A stretch of 64,000 nt of DNA. Source: an uncultured bacterium. Lineage in GTDB: Bacteria; Patescibacteriota; Minisyncoccia; CAIUEV01. The stretch covers positions 14,969 to 78,968 of the forward strand of contig CALFZX010000016.1 of assembly GCA_937952315.1 (NCBI GenBank), written 5' to 3'. Made by a program: the position numbers and the translations under genes. The notes below the pieces were generated by a model that saw only the letters and a list, made by a program, of their open reading frames with translations, was not told the origin of the DNA and searched no databases. Below, one piece after another: positions 2,606 through 50,967 of the stretch. Within the stretch, counting starts at the first letter, position 1; each line of letters begins with the position of its first letter.

Positions 2606-4548
2606 TAGGGATTTTCTCCGTCCTTGATTACTCGGCTCATGAATTCGGTAACCGTCGGATCATCCTCTAAAAAAGTATTTTTCTTAACCGTTTTTGAGGT
2701 AATAGTCTCTTGAGTGAAAGTATCGATCGCTTTAAAATTAGATTCGCTGAACAATTCCATTGTTTTTCCGTAGTCATTTTCTGTCGGCGTAATGGCGATT
2801 TGAAAAACTAAATTGACTTCCGGTGTTTCGCTACCCGCTCCAGCCGGAATACGATCTTTGCTCCAAATAATTTCGCGAGTACCCGGCTTGTAAGTTACGC
2901 CGGTTTTTGTTGGAAAAACGCTATCCGTCCATTCAACCCCGAAAGGTAAAACCGATTTAACCTCGACACCCCTCAAGTCATTGAAAGCGTTGGTGACTCT
3001 CCAGTGAACGGTATAGGTGGTTTTTTTGCCAACGGTTGGCGGAAGCGGACCACTGTTGGGGATAGTTCCGTCGCTATAATAGACTTTAGTTTCAAATCCA
3101 ACGAAAGAACTCAGTTTGAATTCAAGATTTTTTCCAAGGACCACTTTGTTTGTTCCGACGGGCGTAGGCATCTCCGGACTCTCTATACTGACTTGGGTGG
3201 TGCCGGTAAAATTTGTCTTTTGATTGTCGGCGAAGGGAATAAAATCGGCTATTCTAACGGTAAAGGAAAGCCTGCCGGAAGAATTCGGCTTCAATACTGC
3301 GAGTTCGGGAGTTTTTCCACCCTGCCAAATGATTTCTTTGGTATTAGGGTCGAACCAGCCGTCGTTTTCCGGTTTGATGCCTTCTTTATAATCAAAAATA
3401 GCTCCGTTCAGTTTGACTTTTACCATGGCTTGGTTGATCGCCCTTTCAGAAGTATTTTGATATTTAATATCAACGCGAACCTCATCTTTTTTGTGAACAA
3501 TGCTTTGTCCGCTAATTATTTCTTGAGAAATAGTCACCGGCGGTTCAGTGATGCTGGAAACAGCGTCTTTCTTTATATATTCGCTGAACCCCTCATCGTT
3601 TTCTATGCCTACGGTGACATTAATGAATTTCTGATCGCCGGTTTTACCGTTGAGCTTGCCTTCGATAGTTAAAGTTTTTTCTTCGTTGCTGAGCAGGGTG
3701 GGGATTTTCCAATTATTTTTCTTTTCTCCCTCAAGTTCGGGATTACTTGTTATGAAGGAGAACCCCTGCGGATAAGTTATTTTGGCTACCAAGTTTTGAA
3801 AGGGCTCTTTGCCGTTGTTGCGAACACGAACTTGGTAATTAACCGCGTAACCGTCAGCAACAGTTCGCGTCGGCTCGATATTCAGACTGAGAGGGACACC
3901 GATAACTCGAGTGCTGCAAAAACTTTCGTTTTTAAATTCGGAATTAAAATTTTCCGGTGTATAGGAAAGAAAGCTTTTGAACTGAACGGAATCCTCATCT
4001 TTGCGAACAAAACGGCCTTTTATTTCGATTATTCCGTCCTGTTGAGCTTTTAAATCTGACAAGCTCCACTCAGCGATATTTTTATTTGTACTGTTGGCTT
4101 GAGGTTTGGTGCTGGCAAGGGAATAATTTGAAGGAAATTCCAGAGTGATTTTGGCATTTTTTGCATCTAGAGGATTGTTATTGGAATAAAGAAGATTGAT
4201 TACAAAATCCTCATTTATATTAACAGCCGAAGGAGCTTTAAGCTCTATTTTTACTTGCTCTTGCTTAAATTCTTGATAGGTAAAAAAATATACCAAATAA
4301 CCGCTGACGGCAATTAAAAACCCGCCCAGGAGAATCGACCCTATCAACATAAAAAGAGTTTTTTGTTTCTTGGTAGTGTTAGTCTCGATAACCCACTCGG
4401 AATCTTTATTTTTTTCATTGATTTTTTGACTGTCATCTGAGGACGGGGCGAGATTTGATCGAGGGTCGTAAGTGTCCAGCTTGGGCTTCCGACTTTCAAT
4501 ATCGCTTTGCTTTGAGTAAAGTTTTTGTCTTAAATCCTGAAGTTTCAT
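2602..4548 (-). CDS. cell-surface protein with DUF11/CARDB-type repeats (N-in, single TM anchor)
   Basis: 648 aa. TM LFMLIGSILLGGFLIAVSGYLVYFF follows ~65 cytoplasmic residues. Repeated ~100-aa units resemble the 'conserved repeat domain' (e.g. TVADGYAVNYQVRVRNNGKEPFQNLVAKITYPQGFSF). Converges on the upstream gene with a 4-nt overlap. Confidence 0.5.
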   Translation of the reverse strand: MKLQDLRQKLYSKQSDIESRKPKLDTYDPRSNLAPSSDDSQKINEKNKDSEWVIETNTTKKQKTLFMLIGSILLGGFLIAVSGYLVYFFTYQEFKQEQVKIELKAPSAVNINEDFVINLLYSNNNPLDAKNAKITLEFPSNYSLASTKPQANSTNKNIAEWSLSDLKAQQDGIIEIKGRFVRKDEDSVQFKSFLSYTPENFNSEFKNESFCSTRVIGVPLSLNIEPTRTVADGYAVNYQVRVRNNGKEPFQNLVAKITYPQGFSFITSNPELEGEKKNNWKIPTLLSNEEKTLTIEGKLNGKTGDQKFINVTVGIENDEGFSEYIKKDAVSSITEPPVTISQEIISGQSIVHKKDEVRVDIKYQNTSERAINQAMVKVKLNGAIFDYKEGIKPENDGWFDPNTKEIIWQGGKTPELAVLKPNSSGRLSFTVRIADFIPFADNQKTNFTGTTQVSIESPEMPTPVGTNKVVLGKNLEFKLSSFVGFETKVYYSDGTIPNSGPLPPTVGKKTTYTVHWRVTNAFNDLRGVEVKSVLPFGVEWTDSVFPTKTGVTYKPGTREIIWSKDRIPAGAGSETPEVNLVFQIAITPTENDYGKTMELFSESNFKAIDTFTQETITSKTVKKNTFLEDDPTVTEFMSRVIKDGENPY

Positions 4549-10697: not shown

Positions 10698-11891
10698 CTA
10701 TTTAGTAATTTCGGTTACCACTCCGGCACCGACCGTTCTGCCACCCTCTCGGATAGCAAAGCGCATTTCTTTCTCGACGGCGACCGGTTTAATCAACTTG
10801 ATTTTGAATTTCATTGTGTCTCCCGGCATAACCATTTCGACACCTTCCGGTAAAGTTACTTCACCGGTAACATCCGTTGTTCTGACAAAAAATTGCGGTT
10901 TGTAACCGGAAAAGAAGGGCGTATGTCGTCCGCCTTCCTCTTTGCTCAGAACATAGACTTCGGCTTCGAATTCGGTGTGCGGAGTAATTGATCCCGGTTT
11001 CGCTAAAACCTGGCCTCTTTCAACCTGTTCCTTTTTGATACCTCGAAGCAAAATTCCGGCGTTATCTCCCGCTTGGCCTCTGTCTAATTCCTTGTTGAAC
11101 ATTTCAACACCGGTAACGGCGGTTTTTTGAGTGTCTCTAAGACCGACGATCTCGACTTCTTCACCTAGGTTGACTACACCTCTTTCAATTCGGCCGGTGA
11201 CCACAGTGCCTCTTCCTTCAATGGAGAAAATATCTTCGATGGGCATCAGATAAGGTTTGTCAATGTCTCGAGTCGGCTCCGGAACTTTACTGTCGAGAGC
11301 ATCGATCAAAGCCAAAATTTGCTTGGCGTTCTCGTCGTTGGCATCCTTGGCCTCGAGAGATTTCAAAGCGGAACCTTTGACGATGGCTGCATTATCACCG
11401 TCAAATTCATATTTAGTTAAGAGTTCTCGAATCTCGGCTTCAACCAATTCTACCAACTCCGGATCGTCCACCTGATCAACTTTATTGATAAAAACAACAA
11501 TTTCCGGTACACCGATTTGTCTTGCCAACAGAATATGCTCTTGAGTTTGAGGCATAGGACCGTCGGTGGCGGCTACAACCAAGATCGCGCCATCCATTTG
11601 AGCGGCGCCAGTGATCATATTTTTGACATAGTCGGCGTGGCCGGGGCAATCTATATGAGCGTAATGTCTTTTTTCCGATTCATATTCAACATGGGCGGTA
11701 GCAATGGTAATGCCTCTTTCTCTTTCTTCCGGTGCCGAGTCGATTTCGTCAACTCTTTTGTGAGTAACGGTTCGTCCGGCCAAGCTTAAACAGTGCAAGA
11801 TGGCGGCCGTTAGAGTGGTTTTTCCGTGGTCAACATGACCGATGGTTCCGACATTGACATGGGGTTTGGTGCGACTAAATTTTTCTGCCAT
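10698..11891 (-). CDS. tuf: elongation factor Tu
   Basis: 397 aa with G-domain motifs [18 protein letters not shown] and NKVD. Canonical EF-Tu throughout. Stop codon is TAG. Confidence 0.97.
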
Positions 11892-18731: not shown

Positions 18732-19679
18732 TTATCGGTTAGCGCAGGCTGAATCAATATCGCCCTTGTCGTTATCGTTAATGTCGTTGTTCTTAAAAGA
18801 GAAAGTCTTCTTCCAAAGCTGGTTGCTCCATGATCGAGTGCCACCGCAACGAATGCCGTAATGATTATTGTCTTCAAACTTATTATTTTTGAATGAAACT
18901 TTGCCACCTTTATTGGTTCTGTTGTTGAGCATTAAACCGCTGGCCTCGTTTGATTTGAAATCGTTGTTGCGGACATCCAGTTTGACTCCTCTAATCTCAA
19001 GTTCCATACCGCCTTCTCCGTTATCTTCGAAAGTGCTGTCGTAAATTTTTCCCTTGACTTTTGATCTTAAATCAAGGCCTTCTTCCTGATTATTCAGAAC
19101 GGAATTATTATAGAAATATAGGTATGTCTGTTCTATATAAAGGCCTTTTCCGTCATTGTCCTCAATGAAAGAATCTTTAATGGTAGTTGAGTAAACCGTC
19201 CGATTTTTGCCGGATCTAACCCAGATGCCGATTCTTTTTGATTTGGTAATTTTTACATTTTTAATCGTTACTTTGGCTTTTTTCTGTACGATAACCGAGT
19301 AGTTTCCTCCCTTGACAGTCAATTTTTCTATTGTACTTCTTTTGCGCATAGTCAAACTGGCTTTGCCGTCGGCTGAAAAATCGATGATAACTTTATTGCG
19401 GTCCTCTCCTAGCAAAGTGGTATAAGTCGGTAAATCCAAATCGCCGGAGGGGTAGGTGCCTTTTTTGATAAAAATTTGTCTCCCGCTTGTCGGGCTGACA
19501 GCCGCTTTGGCGAGAGCGCTTCCGATAGTTTTATACGGATTGGCTTCTGAACCGTCTTCGGTAGAGCTTTGACTGGCACCGTCGACGAAAATATAGCCGG
19601 CGGCCATCGTTGTTGCCGTCAGACCGCTAAAAACCCAAAACAGACCAAGGAGAACAAAACCAAGGAAGATTTTTTTCAT
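18732..19679 (-). CDS. secreted right-handed parallel beta-helix repeat protein
   Basis: Signal peptide (MKKIFLGFVLLGLFWVFSGLTATTMAAG) followed by repeated ~22-aa N/G/D-rich units (NNSVLNNQEEGLDL...STFEDNGEGGMEL...NNDFKSNEASGLML...) typical of the pectate-lyase/NosD fold. Confidence 0.5.
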   Translation of the reverse strand: MKKIFLGFVLLGLFWVFSGLTATTMAAGYIFVDGASQSSTEDGSEANPYKTIGSALAKAAVSPTSGRQIFIKKGTYPSGDLDLPTYTTLLGEDRNKVIIDFSADGKASLTMRKRSTIEKLTVKGGNYSVIVQKKAKVTIKNVKITKSKRIGIWVRSGKNRTVYSTTIKDSFIEDNDGKGLYIEQTYLYFYNNSVLNNQEEGLDLRSKVKGKIYDSTFEDNGEGGMELEIRGVKLDVRNNDFKSNEASGLMLNNRTNKGGKVSFKNNKFEDNNHYGIRCGGTRSWSNQLWKKTFSFKNNDINDNDKGDIDSACANR

Positions 19680-25304: not shown

Positions 25305-26333
25305 ATGTCAAACAGGAATTTAATCAAATCAATAATATTCTTAGCGCTGATATTCGCCACTTCCTCTGTTCACGCTTGGATCGAACCGACGACCGTTCCA
25401 CCCGGTAACAATATTTACGCACCTCTTAATACTTCTTCCTTCGGCCAAAGTAAAATCGGCGGATTGATATTAAACATTGGAAACGCCGCGCACGGTTTAA
25501 TTGTCAGATACGGACTAGTGGGGATTGGCACAGACAGTCCCGAATCCGAACTGGATGTTAGAGGAGAAACCAAAACGGATAGTCTGACAGTGAGAGGGGC
25601 GACAACATTTAACGGCAATTTGACTGTAGCCGGATCAGTAGCTTCAACCGGAAATATATCCACCCAAAATAGTGTTTGTATTAAAGGTGATTACAAATCC
25701 GCTTGGCCTATGGCTAGCAACGACACTCTTCAAACCGTTACCGCAAGAGGAAATACCAGTAATGGAGCCGTTAACATTAATGGGGATTTAAGTTTTAATG
25801 GTGTGCTTTCCACCCCTAATAGAATGCACATTAACGGCCAAGAAGATCTTTATATTTTGAACAAAGGAACTACTCATATCAGTAAGGCTTGAGGTGGAAC
25901 CGGAAATCTAGCGGTAGAGGGAAATTTATGTGTTGGTGGTGACTGTAGAAATAACTGGTGCCCAAATGGTTATATGAGTATTTGGAAAAGTGATGGCCCT
26001 GGAACAATCAGAGAGGCTTGCTTTGATAAAAATGCTGGTATTAGCTGCTCTAATGGTGAAATAACCGTGATAGTCCCTTATCATGAGGCAAAATATATCA
26101 ATGGTGAGAAATATACAAGGGCTAAAATATATCCTGGCGGATATACAGGTGGACCCGGTTGTGATTCGGGCTATGTCAAAGGAACAAGTGCCCAGTGTTC
26201 AATGTGGGTTTTTTATCCAAATGGAACTTTCACAGTTTATTCGAACTGGAATTCTTCTCCTTTGGGCGGCATTGTCGGCAGATGGTCACATCCTTGGTGG
26301 GGCAATCAGGAAAGTTGCTCGTCAAGCTTCTAG
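25305..26333 (+). pseudogene. paralog A of a secreted protein family, interrupted by one in-frame TGA (25890-25892) at a conserved Trp codon
   Basis: One frame is open from ATG 25305 to TAG 26333 except for TGA at 25890. The translation ...TTHISKA*GGTGNLAVEGNLCVGGDC aligns with ...RVSRAWGGTGNLSVEG (paralog B) and ...RVSKAWGGTGNLAVEG (paralog C), which use TGG there. The N-terminal ~165 nt is ~95% identical to paralog B. Confidence 0.7.
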
Positions 26334-26337
26334 TTTT

Positions 26338-27486
26338 TTATTGGGTAATTTCTCTGTAAATTTGTTCATATTTCTCTAGGGTTTTTTTCGAATTAAATTT
26401 CGCTTCCACCCAACATCTCATTTCTTCTTTTTCAATTTTACTTTTGAGGATTTTCTTGATTTTAACGGAAAAATCTTTTTCTTCTTTGATGTCAAAAACG
26501 AATTGTTTTAAATATTTTTCATTGCCGGACCAAATTTCCGGTAAGGCACCAATATCGCTGGTTAAAATTGGGGTGCCACAGGCTAGTGACTCAAGCAGCA
26601 CGAAGGGGAAATCGAATTTTCCGTCCATTTTTTTCGCGGGAAAAACGGTCAAGTCGGCCAGCTGATACATTCTTTCCGGTCTTTCAATCTTGCCCAAAAA
26701 AATAACGTCCTCAGCATAAGCGCTCAAACTAACCAGTTTTTTGAATTTTTCTTCTTTAATTCTGTCCTCCTTGCTTTTGATACGGCAGGCTACAATCAAT
26801 CGATAGCTTCTCCCAGATTCGGAATTTTCTTTGTTTTTCCTTGCTTCGGATTGTTTGAGCTTAACAAATGTCTTCCACAGCAAACCCATGGCGTCAAGCC
26901 GAGAATATTCTCCGGGGTAAAGAAGCGCTATGTCCTTTGTTTTTATTCCGAATTTCCTTCTCAATTCCTGTTTCAATTTTTGAGAAATCGGCCGAAAGTG
27001 TTTCGAATCAATAAACGGAGGAATAATGGAAACATTTTTTTGCTTAATTCTACCGGCCGTATGCTTTGAATAGACAACAGCCTTGTCGCCAAACAGTAAA
27101 TCTCCGCCCTCTTTTTTCGGGGGGCAAGCCAGATTGTGTATTATTTTTATATTTGATTTTTTCAGGATAGTTTTCAGAATCAAGCTGTTGATTGGCGTTG
27201 GGGCAAAGAGCAAGTGGACTATATTGATTTCTGGATTGTCAGTTAAAATTTTTCTCAAGGAAAAAAGAAGTTTCAAGCGCTGTTTTAAATTCCATTCCGA
27301 CCCTTTGTAGATCAAATGTTGAGTAATATTTTTAGGCAAAGACGGATCGTATTCCCCCACTAAAATATGGAATTTCAGACCCTCAATCTGAGTGGCTAAA
27401 AAATAAGCCAGGTTTTTGCTCGCTTCATCCCACGGTGGCGTTAAGGGCCGAGTGACCATCAAAATTTCCGGAATTTTATTTGGCAT
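26338..27486 (-). CDS. glycosyltransferase family 4 (GT-B)
   Basis: C-terminal FPFVLLESLACGTPILTSDIGALPEI donor-binding motif. 382 aa. Confidence 0.65.
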   Translation of the reverse strand: MPNKIPEILMVTRPLTPPWDEASKNLAYFLATQIEGLKFHILVGEYDPSLPKNITQHLIYKGSEWNLKQRLKLLFSLRKILTDNPEINIVHLLFAPTPINSLILKTILKKSNIKIIHNLACPPKKEGGDLLFGDKAVVYSKHTAGRIKQKNVSIIPPFIDSKHFRPISQKLKQELRRKFGIKTKDIALLYPGEYSRLDAMGLLWKTFVKLKQSEARKNKENSESGRSYRLIVACRIKSKEDRIKEEKFKKLVSLSAYAEDVIFLGKIERPERMYQLADLTVFPAKKMDGKFDFPFVLLESLACGTPILTSDIGALPEIWSGNEKYLKQFVFDIKEEKDFSVKIKKILKSKIEKEEMRCWVEAKFNSKKTLEKYEQIYREITQ

Positions 27487-27596
27487 TAATTTTTTTTCAT
27501 AAAATCTATTTTTAGTGTATATTATTTTTATGAAAAAAAGAATTGTTAATTACTTCTCAATAAATCTAAAATTTATTAATTAAAAATCTTAATATT

Positions 27597-29060
27597 ATGT
27601 TTATCCGAGTTAAGATTTGCTCTTTACTAGTAACAATCGGTGTGATTATTTTTTTATGCTCTCCCGCTCACGCTTGGATCGAACCGACGACCGTTCCACC
27701 CGGCAACAATATTTACGCACCTCTTAATACTTCTTCCTTCGGTCAAAGTAAAATCGGCGGATTGATATTAAACATTGGAAACGCCGCACACGGTTTAATC
27801 GTCAGATACGGATTAGTGGGTATTGGTACGGATAATCCGCAGGCAGCCTTGGATGTGGTGGGAAAAGTCAGAAGCACCGGTCTTGAAGTTAACTCAACGA
27901 CGGAAGGAGCCTTATTGCCCCGAATGAATACGAACCAAAGAAATGATATTACCAATAAGGTGGAAGGATTGCTTATTTACAATACGGAAACCAAACAATT
28001 GGAGGTTTACGCTGACGGAGCGTGGAAGGCCAGTAGCGGTGGCGGTGATAGCTTACCGAAAGGTACCATCGCTTTTTTTAATCTTTCCTCTTGTCCTTCC
28101 GGCTGGGCGGAAAAAACAGAACTTAAAGGCAGATATCCCGTCGGCCTGCCCACCGCCGGCACACTCGGTCAGTCGGTCGGTACCGCTTTGACGAACGGAG
28201 AGAATCGCGCAGTGGGCCAACACAGTCATGGAGTGACAGACCCGGGACATAGTCATAATCTGATGGGACAGGATGGAACGTTCGGACCGGGAACCTATGG
28301 GCATTTTATTTGGAATAACGGTCCCTGGTCTTCTGGACGAATTTCAACTTCTACAACCGGAATTTCCATTCAAAATTCTGGTTCTGTCGCGGGCACCAAT
28401 GCCCCCTATCTGCAACTTTTAGCCTGTGAAAAATTAACGACGGCTACCGCTGGCGGTGGCACTTCAACGACGAATGGAGGTTTTTGGCAGAATAATGGAA
28501 CGAGCATCTACTACAATGATGGGAATGTGGGGGTGGGAACCAGCACGCCAACGCAGAAAATGGAAGTGGCGGGGAATGTCAAAGCTTCCGGTGTTTGCAT
28601 CGGCAATGATTGCAAGTCTGCCTGGCCGACAATAACGACCGCTGACACCCTTCAAACCGTGACCGCCCGAGGGAACACTAGTAATGGATCGGTGAATATC
28701 AACGGAGATTTGAGTTTTAACAGTACTCTTTCAACCCCAGGCCGTATGCATATTAACGGTCAAGAAGACTTATACATTTTAAATAAAGGAACTACTCGTG
28801 TTAGTCGTGCCTGGGGCGGAACAGGAAACCTTTCGGTTGAGGGAAGTCTTTGTTTGGGCGGAGATTGTCGTTCTAGCTGGAATATGCCAAAAAGACATTG
28901 TTTTTGGGCCAGCACAAACAGAGCATCCGCCACTGCTAATTTTGCCGTGCAATGTCCCAACAATTACCACTCAACGGGGGTTTCTGAAAGCACGCAATCC
29001 TGTGACCCTTGTACCGGAATCTGTAGTTTCATTGTGTCCGTTCTTTGTTGCAACGATTAA
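27597..29060 (+). CDS. paralog B: secreted protein with shared N-terminal module, phage tail-collar (MdpB-like) domain, Cys-rich C-terminus
   Basis: Signal peptide ...CSPAHA|WIEPTTVPPGNNIYAPLNTSSFGQSKIGGLILNIGNAAHGLIVRYGLVGIGTDNP. The central segment PKGTIAFFNLSSCPSGWAEKTELKGRYPVGLP...QHSHGVTDPGHSHNL matches the tail-collar consensus. Also carries the conserved block DTLQTVTARGNTSNGSVNINGDLSFN...GRMHINGQEDLYILNKGTT. Confidence 0.6.
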   Translation: MFIRVKICSLLVTIGVIIFLCSPAHAWIEPTTVPPGNNIYAPLNTSSFGQSKIGGLILNIGNAAHGLIVRYGLVGIGTDNPQAALDVVGKVRSTGLEVNSTTEGALLPRMNTNQRNDITNKVEGLLIYNTETKQLEVYADGAWKASSGGGDSLPKGTIAFFNLSSCPSGWAEKTELKGRYPVGLPTAGTLGQSVGTALTNGENRAVGQHSHGVTDPGHSHNLMGQDGTFGPGTYGHFIWNNGPWSSGRISTSTTGISIQNSGSVAGTNAPYLQLLACEKLTTATAGGGTSTTNGGFWQNNGTSIYYNDGNVGVGTSTPTQKMEVAGNVKASGVCIGNDCKSAWPTITTADTLQTVTARGNTSNGSVNINGDLSFNSTLSTPGRMHINGQEDLYILNKGTTRVSRAWGGTGNLSVEGSLCLGGDCRSSWNMPKRHCFWASTNRASATANFAVQCPNNYHSTGVSESTQSCDPCTGICSFIVSVLCCND

Positions 29061-29077
29061 AAATTAAAAAATAAAAA

Positions 29078-29608
29078 ATGGAAAACAAAAAAATAATTTT
29101 CCTTAACGCAGTCTTTTCTTTCTTGATGTTTTTAATGGCTATTGGCTACTTTGAATTAAGGACCATTAATTTTTTGAAAAAAAATAATCCAACAAACAAT
29201 CCTATTTCCCAAAATAATATTTTAGAGCAAGCATCTTTAACCAATCCAAACAATGAAGATCCAAAGAACCAAGAGCCGGAACCGATCTATGAAGAGCCGA
29301 AAGATCTCTCTTACAGTGGAAGTCAAGTGCCCGGATTCGCTTCAGGAGAAATTGTTTCTGTCAGTGAAGAAGAATTCGTTTTAAAACAATCGGCCAGCAT
29401 TGATTTAAGATATCAAGTTTTCAAAAAAGATGTTGAAAAAATCACAGAGATTGTTGTTATCGGTTCAAGGGATGACCCAAAAAAAGAGCCGAGAACCGAA
29501 GAAAAAACTTCTGACTGGAGCAACATAAAGGTTGGATCAAAAATAAATATGCGTTTGGACGAAAATCAAAAAAGAATTGTTTCGATTGTCACTTTTAAGG
29601 CCGAATAA
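29078..29608 (+). CDS. hypothetical protein with N-terminal TM anchor
   Basis: 176-aa ORF with a hydrophobic N-terminus (IIFLNAVFSFLMFLMAIGYF). No recognisable family. Confidence 0.35.
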   Translation: MENKKIIFLNAVFSFLMFLMAIGYFELRTINFLKKNNPTNNPISQNNILEQASLTNPNNEDPKNQEPEPIYEEPKDLSYSGSQVPGFASGEIVSVSEEEFVLKQSASIDLRYQVFKKDVEKITEIVVIGSRDDPKKEPRTEEKTSDWSNIKVGSKINMRLDENQKRIVSIVTFKAE

Positions 29609-29617
29609 AGTCATTCT

Positions 29618-29830
29618 TTACCTGTCAACCTTGACTTTTCCATTTTTTCTGGCTACTTTTTGAGGAGTAGCCTTCTGTCCAGAGTGTTGCTTGTAAGCTT
29701 TTCTGTTGGCAATCCCTCCTTCAGCCGACAGAAAGGTAAGGGGGAAGAGGCCTTGATGGTTAATCTTTTCCGGCTTGCGAGTGACACCTTGAACAGAAAG
29801 AATCATTAAATTTCTCCTCTTTGAAAGCAA
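29618..29830 (-). CDS. small basic hypothetical protein (70 aa, K/R-rich; ribosomal-protein-like composition, family not recognised)
   Basis: ORF MLSKRRNLMILSVQGVTRKPEKINHQGLFPLTFLSAEGGIANRKAYKQHSGQKATPQKVARKNGKVKVDR. A weak resemblance to bL28 is not convincing. Confidence 0.25.
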   Translation of the reverse strand: MLSKRRNLMILSVQGVTRKPEKINHQGLFPLTFLSAEGGIANRKAYKQHSGQKATPQKVARKNGKVKVDR

Positions 29831-30918
29831 AAAGTATTCGTTGTCTCAAAATAAAAACGCCCCACGGGATACTAAAAACCCCGTTTTTTATGCCGATTGC
29901 CACTCGCGGTGTCGTCAAGGGTTTAACTCCGGAGGAGCTAAAAAAGCTAAAGGCTACTTTGGTTTTGGGTAACACTTATCATTTATGGTTAAAACCCGGC
30001 TTGAAAGTTATTAAACAATTTGGCGGGCTCCACAATTTTATGCAATGGAATCGACCAATTCTCACCGACTCGGGCGGTTTTCAAGTTTTTTCGCTAAGCA
30101 AGTTCAGAAAAATCACCGATCGGGGCGTTCGCTTTTCGGAGCCCGAATCCGGTAAAAAACATTTTTTGACGCCGGAAAAATCAATTGATATTCAATTGGC
30201 CCTCGGCAGTGATATTATAATGGTTTTGGACGAATGTCCGCCCTGGCCTTGCTCCAAAGCTGATGTTTTGTCCGCCGTTGAAAGAACGACTCACTGGGCT
30301 AAGCGCTGCAAAGATCATTTTCTTAAAAAAACCGCAGGCTATCCAAAGGGGAGCAAACCTCTGCTGTTCGGCATTGTCCAGGGAGGCGTTCACAAAGATC
30401 TAAGAGAAAAAAGCGCGCGCGAGCTGACAAATATCGGCTTTGACGGCTATGCCGTTGGCGGCGTCGCTGTTGGAGAGCCAAGAGAATATTTAAAAAAAGT
30501 CTTAAAATACACTCTGCCTTTTTTACCGGAGAAAAAGCCTCGCTACCTGATGGGATTGGGTCGGCCGGAGGAGATAATCGATTCGGTTAAGTCGGGTATT
30601 GATATGTTTGACTGCGTTATTCCTACACGCGAGGGGCGTCACGGACGATTGTTTATCAGACAAAAAGATTTTCAAAAGGTGGGCACCCCTAAAAAATTTA
30701 ATCCGAAATTAATCTACAAAAACATTAATATTAGTAGAGAAATTTACGCTAAAGACAAAAAAACTATTGACGCCAATTGCAATTGCTACCTCTGTCAAAA
30801 TTGTTCCAAAGCGTATTTGAGACATCTTTTTAAAATTGGCGATATTTTGGCTATGCGACTCGCCTCAGAACACAATTTGCGATTCTATTTGGAATTGATG
30901 GAGAGAATGAAAAAGTAG
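29821..30918 (+). CDS. tgt: queuine tRNA-ribosyltransferase
   Basis: LVLGNTYHLWLKPG, TDSGGFQVFSL, LGSDIIMVLDECPP and a C-terminal Zn site CxCxxC...H (CNCYLCQNC...H). Confidence 0.85.
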   Translation: MKAKSIRCLKIKTPHGILKTPFFMPIATRGVVKGLTPEELKKLKATLVLGNTYHLWLKPGLKVIKQFGGLHNFMQWNRPILTDSGGFQVFSLSKFRKITDRGVRFSEPESGKKHFLTPEKSIDIQLALGSDIIMVLDECPPWPCSKADVLSAVERTTHWAKRCKDHFLKKTAGYPKGSKPLLFGIVQGGVHKDLREKSARELTNIGFDGYAVGGVAVGEPREYLKKVLKYTLPFLPEKKPRYLMGLGRPEEIIDSVKSGIDMFDCVIPTREGRHGRLFIRQKDFQKVGTPKKFNPKLIYKNINISREIYAKDKKTIDANCNCYLCQNCSKAYLRHLFKIGDILAMRLASEHNLRFYLELMERMKK

Positions 30919-31012
30919 TTACAAGGGGCAAGGAACAAGAAGTAAGAAGCAAAAAGAAATTCCCTTATTGAGAGGGGGCGGATCGCCATAGGCAAGACGG
31001 GATGTGTTTATT

Positions 31013-32008
31013 CTATTCTGGAAAAACTGACCATTCATAATTTTTATAGGCCCAATCAAGCATTTTTTGCATTTCCGTCCAACGTTGATGTTGACCGGCG
31101 TCAAGCACTACGCCGATAATTTTACCCTTATCAGGTAGTTCTCGCATCATCAGGAGGCAGTAACCGGCACTGTAAGTAAAACCGGTTTTTGCCCCTAAAA
31201 TTCCGCTATATTTTCCAAGCAGCTCGTTCGTGTTACCCACTCGATGGACTTTGCTAAATTCATCTTTGCTCACAATTTCTATGTGGGAAGGGGTTTGCAT
31301 TATTTCAAGCAGCATCGGATATTTCAAGGTTTCTCGGCCGACCAAGGCGATATCGTAAGCGCAAGAATGGGCCCCTTCATCTTGGAGTCCGGCTGCATCG
31401 GCGAAGTAACTATTTTTCAAACCCAACTCCTTCGCTTTCTCGTTCATCAAAGAAACAAAATCTTCTTCTTTACCCGGTCCGCCAAAGTGTTCGGCCAAAG
31501 CGCGCGCGGCAGTATTGTCGGAATTCATCAGCATTGCTTTCAACAAATCTTTCGCCAAAAATTTTTCGCCTGAAAGAAAATGAACCGTCGCTCCACCGGC
31601 CGTAGCGGCGTAGGAGCTGATTTCGACTCTCTCATTCCAATCCTTAACTCTATCCATCAACACAACGGCGGTCACCAATTTAGTTAAACTGGCGATATTT
31701 TGATCTTCTAACATCTTGTCTTCGAAGATCACTTTTCCACTCTCCGCATCTATCAGAACTGACTTTTTCGCCCAAACAATCAATTTTTCTTTTCTTTTAT
31801 TTTCCTTTGGTCGCGGAACTGAAGGCAAATTCTTTAAAGCTTCTTCCGCCAAGCAAATTTTTTCCGGTTCGACTTTCTCGGCCGTATCCTTTTCAGATCC
31901 GACAGCTTTTTCCGCCAAATGAAAAAAACTTGAATCGTGCAAATTTCCAATTTTTTCTTTAACGGGTAAAAGCAAAAAGGCGGACAGAAAAATTACTATA
32001 AAGAGCAT
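31013..32008 (-). CDS. D-alanyl-D-alanine carboxypeptidase (S11, PBP5-like low-MW PBP)
   Basis: N-terminal signal/TM plus SxxK (IASLTKLVT), SxN (MNSDNTAA) and KTG (GAKTGFT) motifs. Confidence 0.75.
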   Translation of the reverse strand: MLFIVIFLSAFLLLPVKEKIGNLHDSSFFHLAEKAVGSEKDTAEKVEPEKICLAEEALKNLPSVPRPKENKRKEKLIVWAKKSVLIDAESGKVIFEDKMLEDQNIASLTKLVTAVVLMDRVKDWNERVEISSYAATAGGATVHFLSGEKFLAKDLLKAMLMNSDNTAARALAEHFGGPGKEEDFVSLMNEKAKELGLKNSYFADAAGLQDEGAHSCAYDIALVGRETLKYPMLLEIMQTPSHIEIVSKDEFSKVHRVGNTNELLGKYSGILGAKTGFTYSAGYCLLMMRELPDKGKIIGVVLDAGQHQRWTEMQKMLDWAYKNYEWSVFPE

Positions 32009-32039
32009 CGTTTTCTATTTAGTTTTTTCTTCAAAATTG

Positions 32040-32110
32040 AGGTCCGAGGCGGAATTGAACCGCCGTGCGAGGTTTTGCAGACCTCTGCCTAACCGCTCGG
32101 CCATCGGACC
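32040..32110 (-). tRNA. tRNA-Cys (GCA)
   Basis: The minus strand reads GGTCCGATGGCCGAGCGGTTAGGCAGAGGTCTGCAAAACCTCGCACGGCGGTTCAATTCCGCCTCGGACC+U. It has a 7-bp acceptor stem, anticodon loop CTGCAAA, T-loop GGTTCAATTCC and discriminator U73, as expected for Cys. No CCA encoded. Confidence 0.75.
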
Positions 32111-32152
32111 GGCCACTCAACTAGGGTACACTAAAAATATTTTTCGGCCAAA

Positions 32153-33202
32153 TCAAAAATTTTTTGAACATGATCCGAAGTAGTATAATCTTCCCCCATA
32201 TTCAGTATAAGTTCGTCCGTAAATACCACCCAGAGAAGAAGAATCCGCCCAATCGGCATAGATTCTAAAACCGTTGCCGCATACAATAACACGGCATTCG
32301 GCATGTGTTCCCTTTATGTACCCGGAGTCACAAACAACTGTTTGATTGCAGTTATAGACATATAAATAGGCTCTTGTATATTTTTCACCATTTATGTATT
32401 TAGCATAGAAAAATAATCTTGGGTATGTGCCTGTATTCTCGCAACTGCCATCAGAATAGCAAATTTCATTACAGCCAACTTCAGCATTTTTATCTAGACA
32501 AATATAATTGGCTTTTTGATTTTCATAAAACCATTTTCTAAAATAACCTGATGGGCACCATTCCCCAAGACATTCCCCATTTAGGCATAAGTTTCCCTCC
32601 ACCGCTAGATTTCCGGTTCCACCCCAAGCTTTACTGACACGGGTAGTTCCTTTGTTTAAGATATAAAGATCCTCCTGACCATCAATATGCATTCGACCGG
32701 GAGTGGAGAGAACACTGTTAAAAGTTAAATTACCATTAATGTTAACGGCTCCATTGCTGGTATTTCCCCTTGCAGTAACGGATTGAAGAGTGTCGGTACT
32801 GGGGGGAGATGTAACCGGCCAAGCTGATTTACAGTCGCCTTTTATACACAAACTACCATTGGTAGAAACATTACCGACTGAGTTGACTAAACCGTTAACA
32901 GTCGCATTGCCTCTTACTGTTAAACTATCTGTTCTAGTTTCGCCTCTGACATCCAATTTAGCTTCGGGATTATCCGTTCCGATTCCGACTAATCCCGCCT
33001 TAACGATTAATCCATGGGCTGCTCCACCCAAATTCAAAATCAGACCGCCAATTTTGGATTGGCCGAAGGCGGAGGAGTTGAGGGGCGCTAAGATATTATT
33101 TCCGGGAGGAACGGTTGTCGGCTCCACCCAGGCGTGGACTGAGGAAGCGGCTAATATCAACGCTAAAAATATTATTGATTTGATTAAAGCCTTGTTTGGC
33201 AT
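32153..33202 (-). CDS. paralog C: secreted protein with shared N-terminal module and divergent Cys-rich C-terminal domain
   Basis: ...SSVHA|WVEPTTVPPGNNILAPLNSSAFGQSKIGGLILNLGGAAHGLIVKAGLVGIGTDNP...DTLQSVTARGNTSNGAVNINGNLTFN...GRMHIDGQEDLYILNKGTTRVSKAWGGTGNLAVEGNLCLNGEC. The C-terminus shares AKYINGEKYTRA and CDSGYxKGT with paralog A. Start set at MPNKALIKS by analogy with paralog A. Confidence 0.6.
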   Translation of the reverse strand: MPNKALIKSIIFLALILAASSVHAWVEPTTVPPGNNILAPLNSSAFGQSKIGGLILNLGGAAHGLIVKAGLVGIGTDNPEAKLDVRGETRTDSLTVRGNATVNGLVNSVGNVSTNGSLCIKGDCKSAWPVTSPPSTDTLQSVTARGNTSNGAVNINGNLTFNSVLSTPGRMHIDGQEDLYILNKGTTRVSKAWGGTGNLAVEGNLCLNGECLGEWCPSGYFRKWFYENQKANYICLDKNAEVGCNEICYSDGSCENTGTYPRLFFYAKYINGEKYTRAYLYVYNCNQTVVCDSGYIKGTHAECRVIVCGNGFRIYADWADSSSLGGIYGRTYTEYGGRLYYFGSCSKNF

Positions 33203-33229
33203 ATTGGGGAACAATAAAATTTATCATTT

Positions 33230-38472: not shown

Positions 38473-38593
38473 GTCCTGGCGACGACCTACTCTCACACTC
38501 CATCAAGGGAGCACTACCATCGGCGCTGGAGGGCTTAACGGCTGAGTTCGGTATGGGATCAGGTGGATCCCCTCCGCTTCAATCGCCAAGACT
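38473..38593 (-). rRNA. rrf: 5S ribosomal RNA
   Basis: The minus strand reads GTCTTGGCGATTGAAGCGGAGGGGATCCACCTGATCCCATACCGAACTCAGCCGTTAAGCCCTCCAGCGCCGATGGTAGTGCTCCCTTGATGGAGTGTGAGAGTAGGTCGTCGCCAGGAC. It has the helix I terminal pairing, the CCGAAC loop C motif and the GATGGTAGTG loop D/E region. A 12-nt perfect inverted repeat (CAACTCAAAGTC/GACTTTGAGTTG) flanks it as a processing stem. Confidence 0.85.
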
Positions 38594-38881
38594 TTGAGTT
38601 GTAATTTTTAATGAACTTAACCGATAAATTATAAATTACATAAAAAGAAATACTCCCACTACCAGAATAAAAAGAACCGAAATCCAACTGGCCAAGAAAA
38701 AACCTTCATTGAAACCTCTAATTTTCTTCATAATGTTTGCAAAGTTCAAAAATTGAAAGAGTCGTTTAATCAACCAAATCAACTGTTTTTGACTCTTTAC
38801 GGTCACCATTTTTCCTCGATAACCTCCGACCTAATTGAAAAATTTTTAAAAATTTAAAAACTTTTCAAAATTAGTCTCCTT

Positions 38882-40385
<1,504 letters not shown>

Positions 40386-40679
40386 AGTATGATTGTTTGT
40401 TCCCTGGTCTCTAGCTTCGGAAGAACAACGTTCATCCTGAGCTAGCCCGCCTACCGGCAGGCAGGGATCAAACTCTCAATAAAAAATATAACAGTATAAA
40501 CACTGTGTGGATTGCAATCCTCGACCGAAGCCAAGAATTGCTAAAAAAAACGATTATCAAGGAAATAAATAGGTAACCGTAAAAAATCAAAAACTTAACC
40601 AGATTTTTAAGGAACTCTGAAATTTTTTCCAGTGCAACACCGAGCTAAGGTATCACACCTTATTCAAATTTGCAAATTA

Positions 40680-40794: not shown

Positions 40795-40813
40795 AACCGT
40801 TAGTAGCTTTTTT

Positions 40814-40906
40814 CTTGCAACTTGCTCCTTGCTACTTGTAACTTGCAACTTGCTACTAACTCCTTGCAACTTGCTCCTTGCAACTTGCTACTAACTCCTT
40901 GCTACT
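40814..40906. repeat. second heptanucleotide array (units AACTTGC/TCCTTGC/TACTAAC), approximately the inverted complement of the first array
   Basis: cttgcaacttgctccttgctacttgtaacttgcaacttgctactaactccttgcaacttgctccttgcaacttgctactaactccttgctac. The unit TCCTTGC is approximately the reverse complement of GCAAGGA, so arrays 1 and 2 can form a long imperfect hairpin allowing G-U pairs. Confidence 0.85.
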
Positions 40907-41041
40907 TTATGCATTCCAAGATCCAAGATCTACGAACCATTATCGGGCGGATCTCGACCCGCCCCTGTTTGCTCCTTGTGCCTGGCTTATTTTTTTGCTC
41001 TTTTATTTTTTTTATGATTTAAGTAATAAGTAAATTAAAAA

Positions 41042-45424: not shown

Positions 45425-45940
45425 AGAGCAAAGAGTCTTAGAGAAGAAGCCGGGCAATCGCCCCAGTTTTTAATAACGGGGAGGAAAGTCCGAACACCGT
45501 TAAAAATGATGGATAACAACCATCCGTTCCGTTGCGAGACGGCACGAGGGAAAGCGTCACAGAGACAAAACTAACCCTCTCGAGGGTCTAAGGTGAAAAG
45601 TGAGCGGATACGGGTAAAAAATGGTTGCAATTTTTTTTACTCACCGCTCTCTTCCTCTCGGCAACGATAGGAAGTGACAAGCCCCATTTGGTGCAAGGCC
45701 GTGCCCGGGGGGAGTTGAAAGTAGAAAGTTAAAAGTAGAAAAAAGTCGTTCATCACAGCAATTATTCTAAATAATCGTGAACGAAGCGAACTCCAAAACT
45801 TTAAACTTTTCACTTTGAACTTCCCTCGGGAGTGCCGCAAAGAATTCGGCGGTAACGCTCGAATCAAGATAAATGGTTGCCCCTTGATTTTCAAGGACAG
45901 AATTCGGCTTATAGGCTTCTTCTCTAAGACTCTTTGCTCT
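45425..45940 (+). ncRNA. rnpB: RNase P RNA (bacterial-type M1 RNA)
   Basis: P4 5' strand GGGGAGGAAAGTCCGAACACC at ~45472. P4 3' strand ACAGAATTCGGCTTA at ~45897, whose TTCGGCTT pairs with AAGTCCGAA. J11/12-like AAGGTGAAAAGTGAGCGG and GTGCAAGGCCGTGC (the CR-III GCAAGGCC motif). A perfect 27-bp terminal P1 helix closes the RNA: AGAGCAAAGAGTCTTAGAGAAGAAGCC (45425-45451) pairs with GGCTTCTTCTCTAAGACTCTTTGCTCT (45914-45940). Confidence 0.7.
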
Positions 45941-48577: not shown

Positions 48578-49552
48578 TTATTCCCATCCTGAATCCCAAC
48601 CTCCTCCGTCCCAACCGGAATCCCAACCTGAATCCCAACCACCGTCATCCCATCCTGAATCCCAACCGCCATCATCCCATCCTGAATCCCAACCGCCGTC
48701 CCAACCGGAATCCCAAGAATCCCAGCCGCCATCCCATCCACTGTCATCCCAACCACTGTCCCAACCGGAATCCCAGCCGCTATCCCAACCGCCGTCCCAA
48801 CCGGAATCCCAAGAACCCCAGTCGGTGTCCCAACTGTCATTTGGCCAGCCGCTGTCCCAACCGTTATCACTCCAGCCACTGTCCCAACCGTTATCACTCC
48901 AGCCACTGTCCCAACCGTCTCCGCTCCAACCTGAGTTCCAGTTAGATCCAGAACCCGAATAGCCACTTCCACTTGTTCCGCCGGAGCTTTTTCCGCCTCC
49001 GCCGCTACTACCGCCGGAAGATCCTTTAGATCCGGAAGCGTAGTTGTAAGGTTTAGATGAAGAGGAAGAAGCCTTCTTTATATCATTGTAACTGTTATAT
49101 TTATTATACTTATTATATTTATTATACTTAGTGTAAGTATTATATTTTTTAGCACTGTTTTGCTTGTAAGTTTTTTTATTTGTCTTACAGCTTTCCGTTT
49201 GACAACCGCCGGAATAACCACTCACTAAATCTTTGATGTTGTTGACTAAGTCAACATTGATATCATTTGTGTTAGTGGGATAATTATTGTTAGTCGCCGT
49301 GGCTGTGTTGTTGATAGTGATCGGCGCTCCAGTGACGGTTGTAGTGGTAGTGACCGGAGCCGGAGCAGGTGCTGGTGCCGGAGCAGGGGCGGGGGCTGGT
49401 GCCGGAGCAGGGGCCGGTTGAGCCGGTAAGGTTAAATTGATTAAAAGGTCATCATGCTTACTGGGACTTTTAGCTAGAGCATTGGTTGCCGGAGCAATAG
49501 AAGTTCCCGCTAAAACCAAACTTAGAGGCACGGAAATTAAATACTTTTTCAT
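48578..49552 (-). CDS. secreted repeat protein, module copy 1: signal peptide, (PA)n linker, N/T-rich region, KYN repeats, G/S tract, long [GWDSGWD]-type Asp/Gly/Trp tandem-repeat C-terminus
   Basis: MKKYLISVPLSLVLAGTSIAPATNALA|KSPSKHDDLLINLTLPAQPAPAPAPAPAPAPAPAPAPV...INNTATATNNNYPTNTND...KYNTYTKYNKYNKYNKYNSYN...GGSSGGGGKSSGG...GWDSGWSDNGWDSGW...GGGWDSGWE. The nucleotide tandem repeats are visible at 48590-48960. Confidence 0.55.
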   Translation of the reverse strand: MKKYLISVPLSLVLAGTSIAPATNALAKSPSKHDDLLINLTLPAQPAPAPAPAPAPAPAPAPAPAPVTTTTTVTGAPITINNTATATNNNYPTNTNDINVDLVNNIKDLVSGYSGGCQTESCKTNKKTYKQNSAKKYNTYTKYNKYNKYNKYNSYNDIKKASSSSSKPYNYASGSKGSSGGSSGGGGKSSGGTSGSGYSGSGSNWNSGWSGDGWDSGWSDNGWDSGWSDNGWDSGWPNDSWDTDWGSWDSGWDGGWDSGWDSGWDSGWDDSGWDGGWDSWDSGWDGGWDSGWDDGGWDSGWDDGGWDSGWDSGWDGGGWDSGWE

Positions 49553-50238: not shown

Positions 50239-50967
50239 CTAGATGCTGTAGGTTGACTGTTCGGTCGTTGTAGAGCTTCCATTCCCGTTGTCTCCACTGC
50301 CACTGTTCCATTCATTAGATTGCATATAATTGAAAGCATCGTCCCATCCGGTGTCCCAACCGTTGCTCCAACCATCATCCCAAGCGCTATTCCATTCGCT
50401 TTCCCAGTCTATATTTTCGTAATTTGTGTTATTCCCGTTACTGCCATTCCATTCATTTTCCCAATTATAATTGGCATAATCGGTATAGGTTGAACCGTCT
50501 TGATACGGACCCCAAACCCATTCATAATTACTGAAGTCATTGTTAAAATAATATTTCTTGGGGGTGGCAACGGGACCGTTGGTTTTTCTCTGGTTGCTAC
50601 TTTGGCCATAGTCAGTCCAAGAGGTCTTATAGGGATAAGCTTTACTTTTTGCCTCTTTACATTTTTCAGCGGACATTTCTTTCACTAAATCCTTAATACT
50701 GTTAATCAGATCCAAATCAATGTTGTTCGTGTTGACCGGGTAATTATTGTTTGTCGCGGTGGCCGTGTTGTTGATTATAATCGGTGTCGGCTCGGCTACC
50801 GGAGCCGGAGCCGGTGCCGGGGCTGGGGCTGGTTGAGCCGGTAAAGCTACATTAATAACCAAGTCATCGTGTTTACTCGGACTTTTTGCCAAAGCGAGAC
50901 TACCTTCCAGCCAGAGACCTCCCGCTAAGACGGTCGCTAAAATTGTTGATAGCAAATACTTTTTCAT
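50239..50967 (-). CDS. secreted repeat protein, module copy 2 (paralog of 48578..49552) with W/N/D/G-rich C-terminus
   Basis: MKKYLLSTILATVLAGGLWLEGSLALA|KSPSKHDDLVINVALPAQPAPAPAPAPAPV...INNTATATNNNYPVNTNNIDLDLINSIKDLV... then W-rich repeats (NEWNSAWDDGWSNGWDTGWDD). The first ~110 aa are ~80% identical to copy 1. Confidence 0.55.
   Translation of the reverse strand: MKKYLLSTILATVLAGGLWLEGSLALAKSPSKHDDLVINVALPAQPAPAPAPAPAPVAEPTPIIINNTATATNNNYPVNTNNIDLDLINSIKDLVKEMSAEKCKEAKSKAYPYKTSWTDYGQSSNQRKTNGPVATPKKYYFNNDFSNYEWVWGPYQDGSTYTDYANYNWENEWNGSNGNNTNYENIDWESEWNSAWDDGWSNGWDTGWDDAFNYMQSNEWNSGSGDNGNGSSTTTEQSTYSI

Follow-up and report, generated by a model that had tools for sequence, protein, structure and literature searches.

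Modular proteins with a predicted Sec signal peptide, a conserved N-terminus and exchangeable Cys-rich tips as candidate attachment fibres of a patescibacterium

Three genes in a 64-kb stretch of patescibacterial DNA (contig CALFZX010000016.1; hereafter the window) encode proteins which start with the same conserved N-terminus and end in different Cys-rich domains, raising the question of what kind of protein is built in this way and what its variable end might serve. On balance, the three copies, termed A, B and C, are probably Sec-exported modular proteins, which by analogy to the mosaic adhesive trimer (MAT) fibres of Bdellovibrio bacteriovorus reported by Caulton et al. 2024 (PMC10769870) would most likely act as homotrimeric cell-surface attachment fibres. 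Host identification and binding by ultrasmall episymbiotic bacteria are described in a passage of PMC12206443 as largely unknown, and in the literature searched here type IV pili are almost the sole attachment structure that has been tested.

A, B and C were compared by open reading frame (ORF) listing, translation, alignment and tblastn. As outlined in Table 1, the three paralogs lie where the initial annotation had placed them, and the alignment recovers in all of them both proposed regions of similarity, i.e. the mature N-terminus starting from AHA↓W (the arrow marks the cleavage site) and the second block DTLQ...PGRMHI...LYILNKG...AWGGTGNL.VEG.LC. Along their entire length, copies A and C share 63–65% identity (E about 1e-127 to 1e-129, tblastn), and B aligns to A and to C as two separate blocks (E 1e-33 to 1e-47). 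The leaders of all three are hydrophobic and end in V/A-H-A, with sequence identity setting in exactly at the next Trp. From there the proteins follow a shared plan consisting of an N-module of 66 amino acids (aa), a short shaft, one GRMHI/LYLLNK/AWGG unit (block 2), a two-Cys joint and a Cys-rich variable tip of ~60–135 aa. In C, these modules comprise the signal peptide (residues 1–24), the N-module (25–90), the short shaft, a first joint (119–128), block 2 (137–205), the second joint (206–215) and tip 1 (216–349), and A is organized by the same module plan. In B the short shaft is replaced by an insert, which measures ~240 aa (residues 93–333) instead of the ~270 aa estimated initially, and which carries, in this order, a PTL_trimer region (~93–146), an HxH domain (154–279), a Gly/Thr linker and a second capping-loop repeat (296–332). 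First joint, block 2, second joint and tip 2 (residues 429–487) then follow. The Cys-rich tip with AKYINGEKYTRA and CDSGY.KGT is indeed common to A and C, and the tip of B is different. The public gene call for C uses a TTG at 33214, 12 nt upstream of our start (33203..33214, minus strand), resulting in 353 aa; from the ATG (349 aa) the signal peptide runs parallel to that of A. A fourth copy was not found in the window by tblastn, and a repeat finder gave the same blocks and nothing else involving A, B or C. A weak tblastn match at 12858–12953 proved to be spurious, lying antisense within a 642-aa ORF.

Signal peptides were called by rule, based on n-, h- and c-regions and the −3/−1 rule. In A, B and C the n-region carries a charge of +2, the Kyte-Doolittle hydropathy of the h-region is 2.7–3.2 and positions −3/−1 are occupied by V/A and A. 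Among 125 relatives, 107 have Ala and 9 have Gly at position −1, 121 have a small or aliphatic residue at −3 and 119 have Trp at +1, so that the secretion signal proposed initially holds for the three copies as well as for their relatives. Alignment of the same 125 proteins revealed three invariant residues (P28, N36 and P40) and 24 further columns with at least 90% conservation, including A24 (−1) and W25 (+1). AlphaFold2 (AF2) predicts a confident helix at the N-terminus. As far as can be judged from sequence, the relatives show the pattern expected where signal peptidase I cleaves and the mature N-terminus behind the site is under functional constraint; across the family, conservation sets in exactly at Trp +1. 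Furthermore, codon comparison indicates that the N-module is under purifying selection, because A and C differ within it by 40 synonymous versus 14 non-synonymous codon changes in 76 codons.

The N-module itself had been described as unassignable to any family, which stands for its first part and not for its second. Residues 1 to ~27 are Pro-rich (W-x-E-P-T-x-x-P-P-G-x-N-x-x-A-P-L-N...Q-x-K-x-G-G-L), and the next ~40 residues form a beta-helix "capping-loop" repeat like that of the Bdellovibrio MAT fibres. The capping-loop motif was derived for trimeric beta-helix fibres and was also found in MyRF (PMC10769870). A profile of the N-module matched the PDB entries 8OND (Bd2133, E 5.7e-13, in three stretches), 8OML (Bd1334, E 2.7e-6), 8OJN (Bd3182, E 3.5e-5) and 8OL4 (Bd2439, E 2e-3) and, weakly, 7DC3 (MyRF, E about 1); the PDB entries of the Bdellovibrio MATs comprise C-terminal fragments only. 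All these matches fall on profile positions 28–67, i.e. on the capping-loop motif, of which A and C carry one copy each and B carries two. For positions 1–27 the profile search yielded no PDB match, and neither Pfam and NCBIfam models nor precomputed annotation cover the N-module. Scans of A, B and C against Pfam and NCBIfam resulted in sub-threshold Bactofilin, TamB and P2_V noise only.

Block 2 turned out to be a repeat unit, GR(M/L)HI.G.E.LYLLNK.GV.VSKAWGG.GNL.V.G, which occurs in one to three copies per protein, with tandem copies spaced by 46–54 aa, and which is also present in proteins ending in Peptidase_S74 (S74) and in an H-type-lectin protein. It has no match in Pfam or, by profile search, in the PDB. 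In 40 of the 125 proteins the variable tip comes directly after the joint, C-[ILV]-x-G-x-C-[KR]-x-x-W. The median tip length in this set is 95 aa, and by similarity the 40 tips separate into 28 groups. Tip 1 (WCP.GYF...AKYINGEKYTRAY...CD(S/T)GYVKG...) recurs in five proteins, namely A, C, P0008, P0052 and P0056. P0008 lacks block 2 and resembles B in its N-terminal half, and the middles of P0052 and P0056 differ. Tip 2 is carried by B, P0016 and two short proteins, P0006 and P0007. The swapping of C-terminal modules on a conserved N-terminus, as suggested by the initial annotation, is thus correct and general, since tips recur on different scaffolds and the joint precedes a variable tip in so many relatives. 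The conserved joint is plausibly a boundary of both recombination and folding.

The insert of B contains a putative PTL_trimer domain and the HxH domain. PTL_trimer (PF26696) is assigned to B by precomputed annotation, and A and C have no such annotation. A profile of this region found no match among PDB sequences, and its fold matches to the trimerisation domains of collagen XV/XVIII (PDB 3N3F, 3HON) are below significance. Within the insert, the initial annotation had recognized a tail-collar motif. At the level of sequence families this was not retained, as the Pfam model Collar (PF07484) matches neither B (E <= 1) nor 21 homologous domains (E <= 10); at fold level the likeness persists, the AF2 model of B matching MdpB and phage-tail-collar proteins in BFVD (E 1.1e-4 and 1.8e-4). 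Moreover, the HxH motifs (HxHxxxDPGHxH, TGIS) align weakly with the phage long tail fibre 8KEC (E 0.021). Homologs of the HxH domain with ~50% identity occur in metagenome-assembled genomes (MAGs) of Actinomycetota, Elusimicrobia, Gemmatimonadetes, Acidobacteria and Wolfebacteria. Of 51 proteins with the domain, 45 carry it at their very C-terminus and the other six, all of which are B-type, internally; collagen repeats or a pilin N-methylation motif are found in some of its partners. It was also found on 14 IMG/VR contigs, once as a 205-aa ORF right after an 838-aa ORF. The latter pair lies on L011 (IMGVR_UViG_3300033121_001507), where the HxH ORF (2782..3399) follows the large, tail-like gene. 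On L011–L015, viral contigs of 13–68 kb, the domain is the C-terminus of small ORFs with 36–53% identity. Because it ends small ORFs on viral contigs, sequence comparison suggests that the HxH domain is common to phages and cellular fibres.

How far does this architecture extend? An exhaustive HMMER search with C returned 3064 clusters (50% identity) at E <= 1e-3, hardly any of them covered by Pfam, and 718 at E <= 1e-10; the supposed family of three is consequently a small part of a superfamily with thousands of clusters. The best 150 of the 3064 matches mostly concern the N-module, located at the N-terminus of proteins of ~115 to ~1300 aa. Named members are few and comprise Candidatus Spechtbacterales, "Patescibacteria group bacterium", unclassified bacterial MAGs and one Aerophobetes MAG; the Patescibacteria names originate from a search of a large protein database with a 68-aa N-module profile, which returned only short proteins. 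In a close relative of the genome in the window (glycyl-tRNA synthetase in the same 90%-identity cluster), a 0.9-Mb scaffold encodes PilM, and another scaffold of the same assembly, bearing the fibre gene P0003, encodes T4SS-pilin proteins. The named relatives, with Wolfebacteria among them for the HxH domain, and the 0.9-Mb scaffold point to a bacterium of the Patescibacteria/CPR type. With respect to domains, more than 100 of the 125 N-module proteins are without any Pfam match. Seven end in Peptidase_S74, two carry Shufflon_N, and single proteins carry collagen C4, Endostatin/NC10, Laminin_G_3, Fib_succ_major, Gly_rich_2, fn3, Gp53-like_C or pAdhesive_15. In the Pfam scan Peptidase_S74 is absent from A, B and C themselves, and PHROG tail-protein families match all three (B at 1.6e-10). 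The fibre-like nature proposed initially is corroborated by these results, as the N-module matches MAT capping loops, relatives end in Peptidase_S74 and part of B resembles tail-collar proteins. No description of the family was found in the literature searched, which included papers on Patescibacteria adhesion, papers citing the MAT work, PF26696/PTL_trimer and motif strings.

Not all three copies are intact, a point missed by the initial annotation. In A, an in-frame TGA replaces the Trp of "AWGG", a residue that is invariant in a 24-sequence profile of block 2, and the second Cys of the first joint is lost. Downstream of the TGA the frame is open up to the end of the tip. Neither an alternative genetic code nor a sequencing error accounts for this codon: TGA terminates 7 of 47 long ORFs and is therefore an ordinary stop here, and the codon in A recurs in two further public assemblies, 2–4 single-nucleotide polymorphisms (SNPs) away from the window. 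In view of this recurrence, A is probably a recently inactivated copy, i.e. a young pseudogene.

A second peculiarity of A is its near-identical DNA stretch shared with B. The stretch is real, with 94.2% identity over 171 nt, but its register has to be corrected to 25370..25540 versus 27668..27838, in place of the earlier 25364..25530. Within its first 120 nt A and B show 2 mismatches, whereas A or B and C show 36–37 (binomial P about 2e-16). The onset is abrupt at the H-A-W codons, upstream of which the signal-peptide DNA of A and B is unrelated, and after the first 120 nt the identity falls away within about 50 nt. By comparison, the signal-peptide DNA of A and C is 85% identical. A is thus mosaic, since its signal peptide is C-like while the adjoining tract is near-identical to B. 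Of the two origins considered initially, the sharply bounded tract is best read as a gene-conversion patch and not as a recent whole-gene duplication. At position 27692, in the B arm, the window reads C, as A does at 25394, and two further assemblies from this population read T; the SNP would fit ongoing conversion as well as paralog reads mixed during assembly. A diversity-generating retroelement of the kind that targets Mtd, defined by a template/variable repeat pair with adenine-specific mismatches and a nearby reverse transcriptase, is rejected on the tract and repeat comparisons.

The neighbourhood of the genes is inconspicuous. Locally they stand among PBP2, YceG, cytidylate kinase, GT4, TGT, Peptidase_S11 carboxypeptidase, tRNA-Cys and enolase, and the interleaved neighbours named initially were all recovered (Glycos_transf_1, TGT, Peptidase_S11 and tRNA-Cys). 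In relatives the neighbours are RF-1 and a Mur ligase, RecA and TrmD, or GltX and Fmt. The flanking genes are housekeeping genes in all five independent contexts; capsid, tail or baseplate genes were found in none of these flanks. The GC content is unremarkable across the region, and a promoter and terminator scan yielded counts at or below the shuffled expectation. A gene starting 17 nt after B encodes a companion protein whose N-terminus forms a hydrophobic anchor. One homolog follows P0007 directly (L009 5961..6485; 43% identity, E 9e-48), another stands immediately before P0008 (L007 9245..9961) and a third lies after a distant fibre gene in L005 (about 11288..11419), one of the homologs being weaker (33% identity); companion and fibre genes thus adjoin in four unrelated genomic contexts. 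Family scan and profile search revealed no Pfam family or PDB match for the companion, which could be an assembly or anchoring partner of the fibres.

Table 1. Position of the paralogs A, B and C, their modules and associated features in the window.
Feature	Coordinates	Strand	Remarks
Copy A, fibre-like gene with in-frame stop	25305..26333	+	public gene calls: separate 195-aa and 119-aa ORFs
A signal peptide, 24 aa, ...VHA↓W	25305..25376	+	~85% DNA identity with C signal peptide
A arm of the A-B conversion tract, from codons H-A-W	25370..25540	+	
A N-module, W-I-E-P...LDV.G, 66 aa	25377..25574	+	
A first joint, broken, CIKGDYKSAW (second Cys to Tyr)	25677..25706	+	
A block 2 (GRMHI/LYILNK/AWGG repeat unit)	25722..25928	+	
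In-frame TGA in A, in place of Trp of "AWGG"	25890-25892	+	
A second joint CVGGDCRNNW	25929..25958	+	
A tip 1, Cys-rich, AKYINGEKYTRA...CDSGYVKGT	25959..26330	+	
Copy B, intact, 487 aa, with inserted putative PTL_trimer domain and HxH domain	27597..29060	+	
B signal peptide, 26 aa, ...AHA↓W	27597..27674	+	
B arm of the A-B conversion tract	27668..27838	+	
B N-module	27675..27872	+	
B PTL_trimer region, Pfam PF26696 (precomputed annotation)	27873..28034	+	AF2 predicted local distance difference test (pLDDT) >90
B HxH domain, FFNL..CP.GW...GQH.H...DPGH.H...GTNAPYLQLLAC.K	28056..28433	+	
B second capping-loop repeat, GNVGVGTSTPTQKMEV.G	28482..28592	+	
B first joint CIGNDCKSAW	28596..28625	+	
B block 2	28644..28850	+	
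B second joint CLGGDCRSSW	28851..28880	+	
B tip 2, RHCFW...LCCND	28881..29057	+	
Companion gene, 176 aa, N-terminal hydrophobic anchor	29078..29608	+	starts 17 nt after B
Copy C, intact, 349 aa	32153..33202	-	
C signal peptide, 24 aa, ...VHA↓W	33131..33202	-	
C N-module	32933..33130	-	
C first joint CIKGDCKSAW	32819..32848	-	
C block 2	32588..32794	-	
C second joint CLNGECLGEW	32558..32587	-	
C tip 1, 12 Cys	32156..32557	-	homologous to tips of A, P0008, P0052 and P0056

Further observations concern other parts of the window. About 6 kb upstream of A, at 18732..19679 on the minus strand (L001 1136..2083), a 315-aa protein with NosD/Beta_helix/DUF1565 matches and a right-handed beta-helix is encoded, which may be another secreted surface protein. 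The rRNA genes occupy 38474..40386 on the minus strand, where the 16S rRNA (38884..40386) is followed after ~290 nt by the 5S rRNA (38474..38590) with no 23S rRNA between them, an unusual, unlinked arrangement. The spacer between 16S rRNA and tRNA-Phe holds a tandem array of a 14-nt unit (CTTGCAACTTGCTx, 40800..40920). The match to class A RNase P RNA (45442..45927, plus strand) spans 486 nt versus a model of 367 positions, implying sizeable insertions. Dense periodic repeats of 12/15/27 nt (CCAACC/GGAATC units) fill 48582..48955, where the minus strand would encode Gly-Trp-Asp-rich repeats. Finally, a 95-nt direct repeat with a GC-rich start (GGxGCxGG) occurs at 49386..49480 and 50801..50895, 1.4 kb apart and 78% identical, probably marking two paralogous genes.

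Taken as attachment fibres, A, B and C would work as follows. The invariant N-module would tether the fibre to some conserved component on the surface of the producing cell, and the distal tip would bind to a ligand of a host or partner cell. The family may thus be the means by which ultrasmall bacteria, probably Patescibacteria, recognise the cells that carry them. Recombination at conserved modules would diversify the repertoire, as suggested by the A-B conversion tract and by identical tips on different scaffolds, with A being a recently inactivated copy within it. N-terminal anchoring, trimerisation and binding of host or prey by the tip are features we infer by likeness to the Bdellovibrio MAT fibres (PMC10769870). 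Several results weigh against this assignment. The likeness to MATs is limited to the ~40-aa repeat, N-module residues 1–27, block 2 and both tips matching nothing known. With 349–487 aa the three proteins are far shorter than MAT fibres of about 1000 aa, and their shaft is therefore minimal. Neither a C-terminal anchor nor a sortase signal was found in A, B or C. The AF2 monomer of full-length C reached a pLDDT of 53.6 and was not used for the fold search, and that of B is confident at residues about 105–200 only; the modelled tips of B and C, proposed initially as lectin-like or fibre-like, are of low confidence.

Three other explanations were weighed, each of which is less consistent with the data than attachment fibres. 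A conserved N-terminus, a variable C-terminus and recombination at their junction are also typical of polymorphic toxins. The same layout would thus suit secreted polymorphic effectors or bacteriocins, with the N-terminal part serving delivery or trafficking, the Cys-rich C-terminus acting as toxin and the membrane protein beside B conferring immunity, and a small membrane-protein gene does stand beside fibre genes in four contexts. Immunity specific for a tip is nevertheless unfitting, because the companion occurs with tip 2 (B and P0007) as well as with tip 1 (P0008) and is missing beside A and C. Furthermore, no toxin family of Pfam, NCBIfam or PHROGs was matched and the recognisable tips of relatives are lectin, adhesin, tail-fibre or S74 domains and not toxins, which makes such effectors quite improbable in our view.

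Somewhat easier to imagine, though still rather unlikely, are structural components of the envelope or matrix (surface-layer-associated or for cell cohesion), which would lack specific host recognition and whose tips would vary under antigenic or phage-evasion pressure. Secreted, repetitive, beta-rich proteins with a widely conserved N-module would fit anchoring to a conserved envelope polymer equally well. The GT4 and peptidoglycan-related neighbours point the same way, but look coincidental because the neighbours differ in every context. What argues against a purely structural role is the extreme diversity of the tips, with the same tips recurring on different scaffolds, together with the lectin and tail-fibre tips of relatives and the domain shared with phage contigs, all of which are hallmarks of receptor-binding proteins. 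That phage proteins give the best annotated matches (PHROG tail and tail-fibre families, BFVD phage proteins) and that the HxH domain resides on viral contigs could also indicate fibres of a prophage remnant or tailocin in place of cellular surface proteins. The Sec signal peptides of A, B and C with their conserved cleavage site are, to our knowledge, not a feature of phage tail fibres. Along with the housekeeping flanks, the lack of capsid, tail and baseplate genes in the five contexts, the unremarkable GC content and the failure to find any N-module relative in 2.9 million viral contigs, they render a phage origin of this kind very improbable.

Starting from attachment fibres, a wider proposal can be made, which we put forward tentatively and which may well prove wrong. 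The N-module (W-x-E-P...G-G-L-I-L-N) would be a surface docking device, widespread in Patescibacteria and a few other lineages, that defines a host-recognition fibre arsenal of ultrasmall episymbionts. Short MAT-like trimers would be assembled or anchored with the companion, and Cys-rich tip cassettes would be exchanged at the two-Cys joint, partly with phages, setting and shifting the host range; copy A would then capture the arsenal in turnover. If such an arsenal exists, N-module profile and joint motif provide a handle to enumerate candidate host-recognition proteins over thousands of uncultivated genomes, and the tips would represent defined, small and testable receptor-binding units. A mechanism of diversification would become visible as well, in which conserved modules undergo conversion and tips are exchanged, one of the domains involved being common to phages, and the MAT concept would reach a lineage quite unlike Bdellovibrio and proteins of much smaller size. 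Moreover, at least three abundant modules, namely the N-terminal peptide, block 2 and the HxH domain, lack a Pfam model.

Among known systems, the phage fibres and tailspikes with an S74 chaperone (K1F endosialidase, T5 L-shaped fibre) have the capping-loop repeat in common with the family, in addition to S74 in 7 of 125 relatives and the PHROG tail families. They differ in that A, B and C are without S74, carry Sec signal peptides and lie among housekeeping genes in a non-phage context. B resembles the phage tail collar and MdpB (PF07484) in the BFVD model match (E about 1e-4) and the HxH metal-binding motifs of T4-type long tail fibres (8KEC) by its HxH and TGIS motifs, whereas the Pfam Collar model does not match and the domain is internal in B and not terminal. 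The closest analogy is to the MAT fibres, in which the signal peptide is followed by a beta-rich N-terminal domain of ~130 aa that is conserved and homologous from one MAT to another (PMC10769870). The N-module described here has 66 aa, the first 27 without match, compared to about 130 aa; no counterpart was found for block 2, the Cys joint and tips 1 and 2; and A, B and C belong to Patescibacteria and not to Bdellovibrionota. Common to both are a signal peptide with a conserved N-terminal region at once behind it, the capping-loop motif VG.G..P...L with significant profile matches, interchangeable C-terminal tips, in A, B and C as unclassified Cys-rich domains, S74 and non-S74 subgroups among the relatives, and many paralogs dispersed in the chromosome of a bacterium living on other cells. 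Mosaic trimeric fibre adhesins related to phage fibres were thus known already from Bdellovibrio; new here are the distinct and extremely conserved N-terminal peptide, the short length, block 2 together with the Cys joint, the Cys-rich tips and the lineage.

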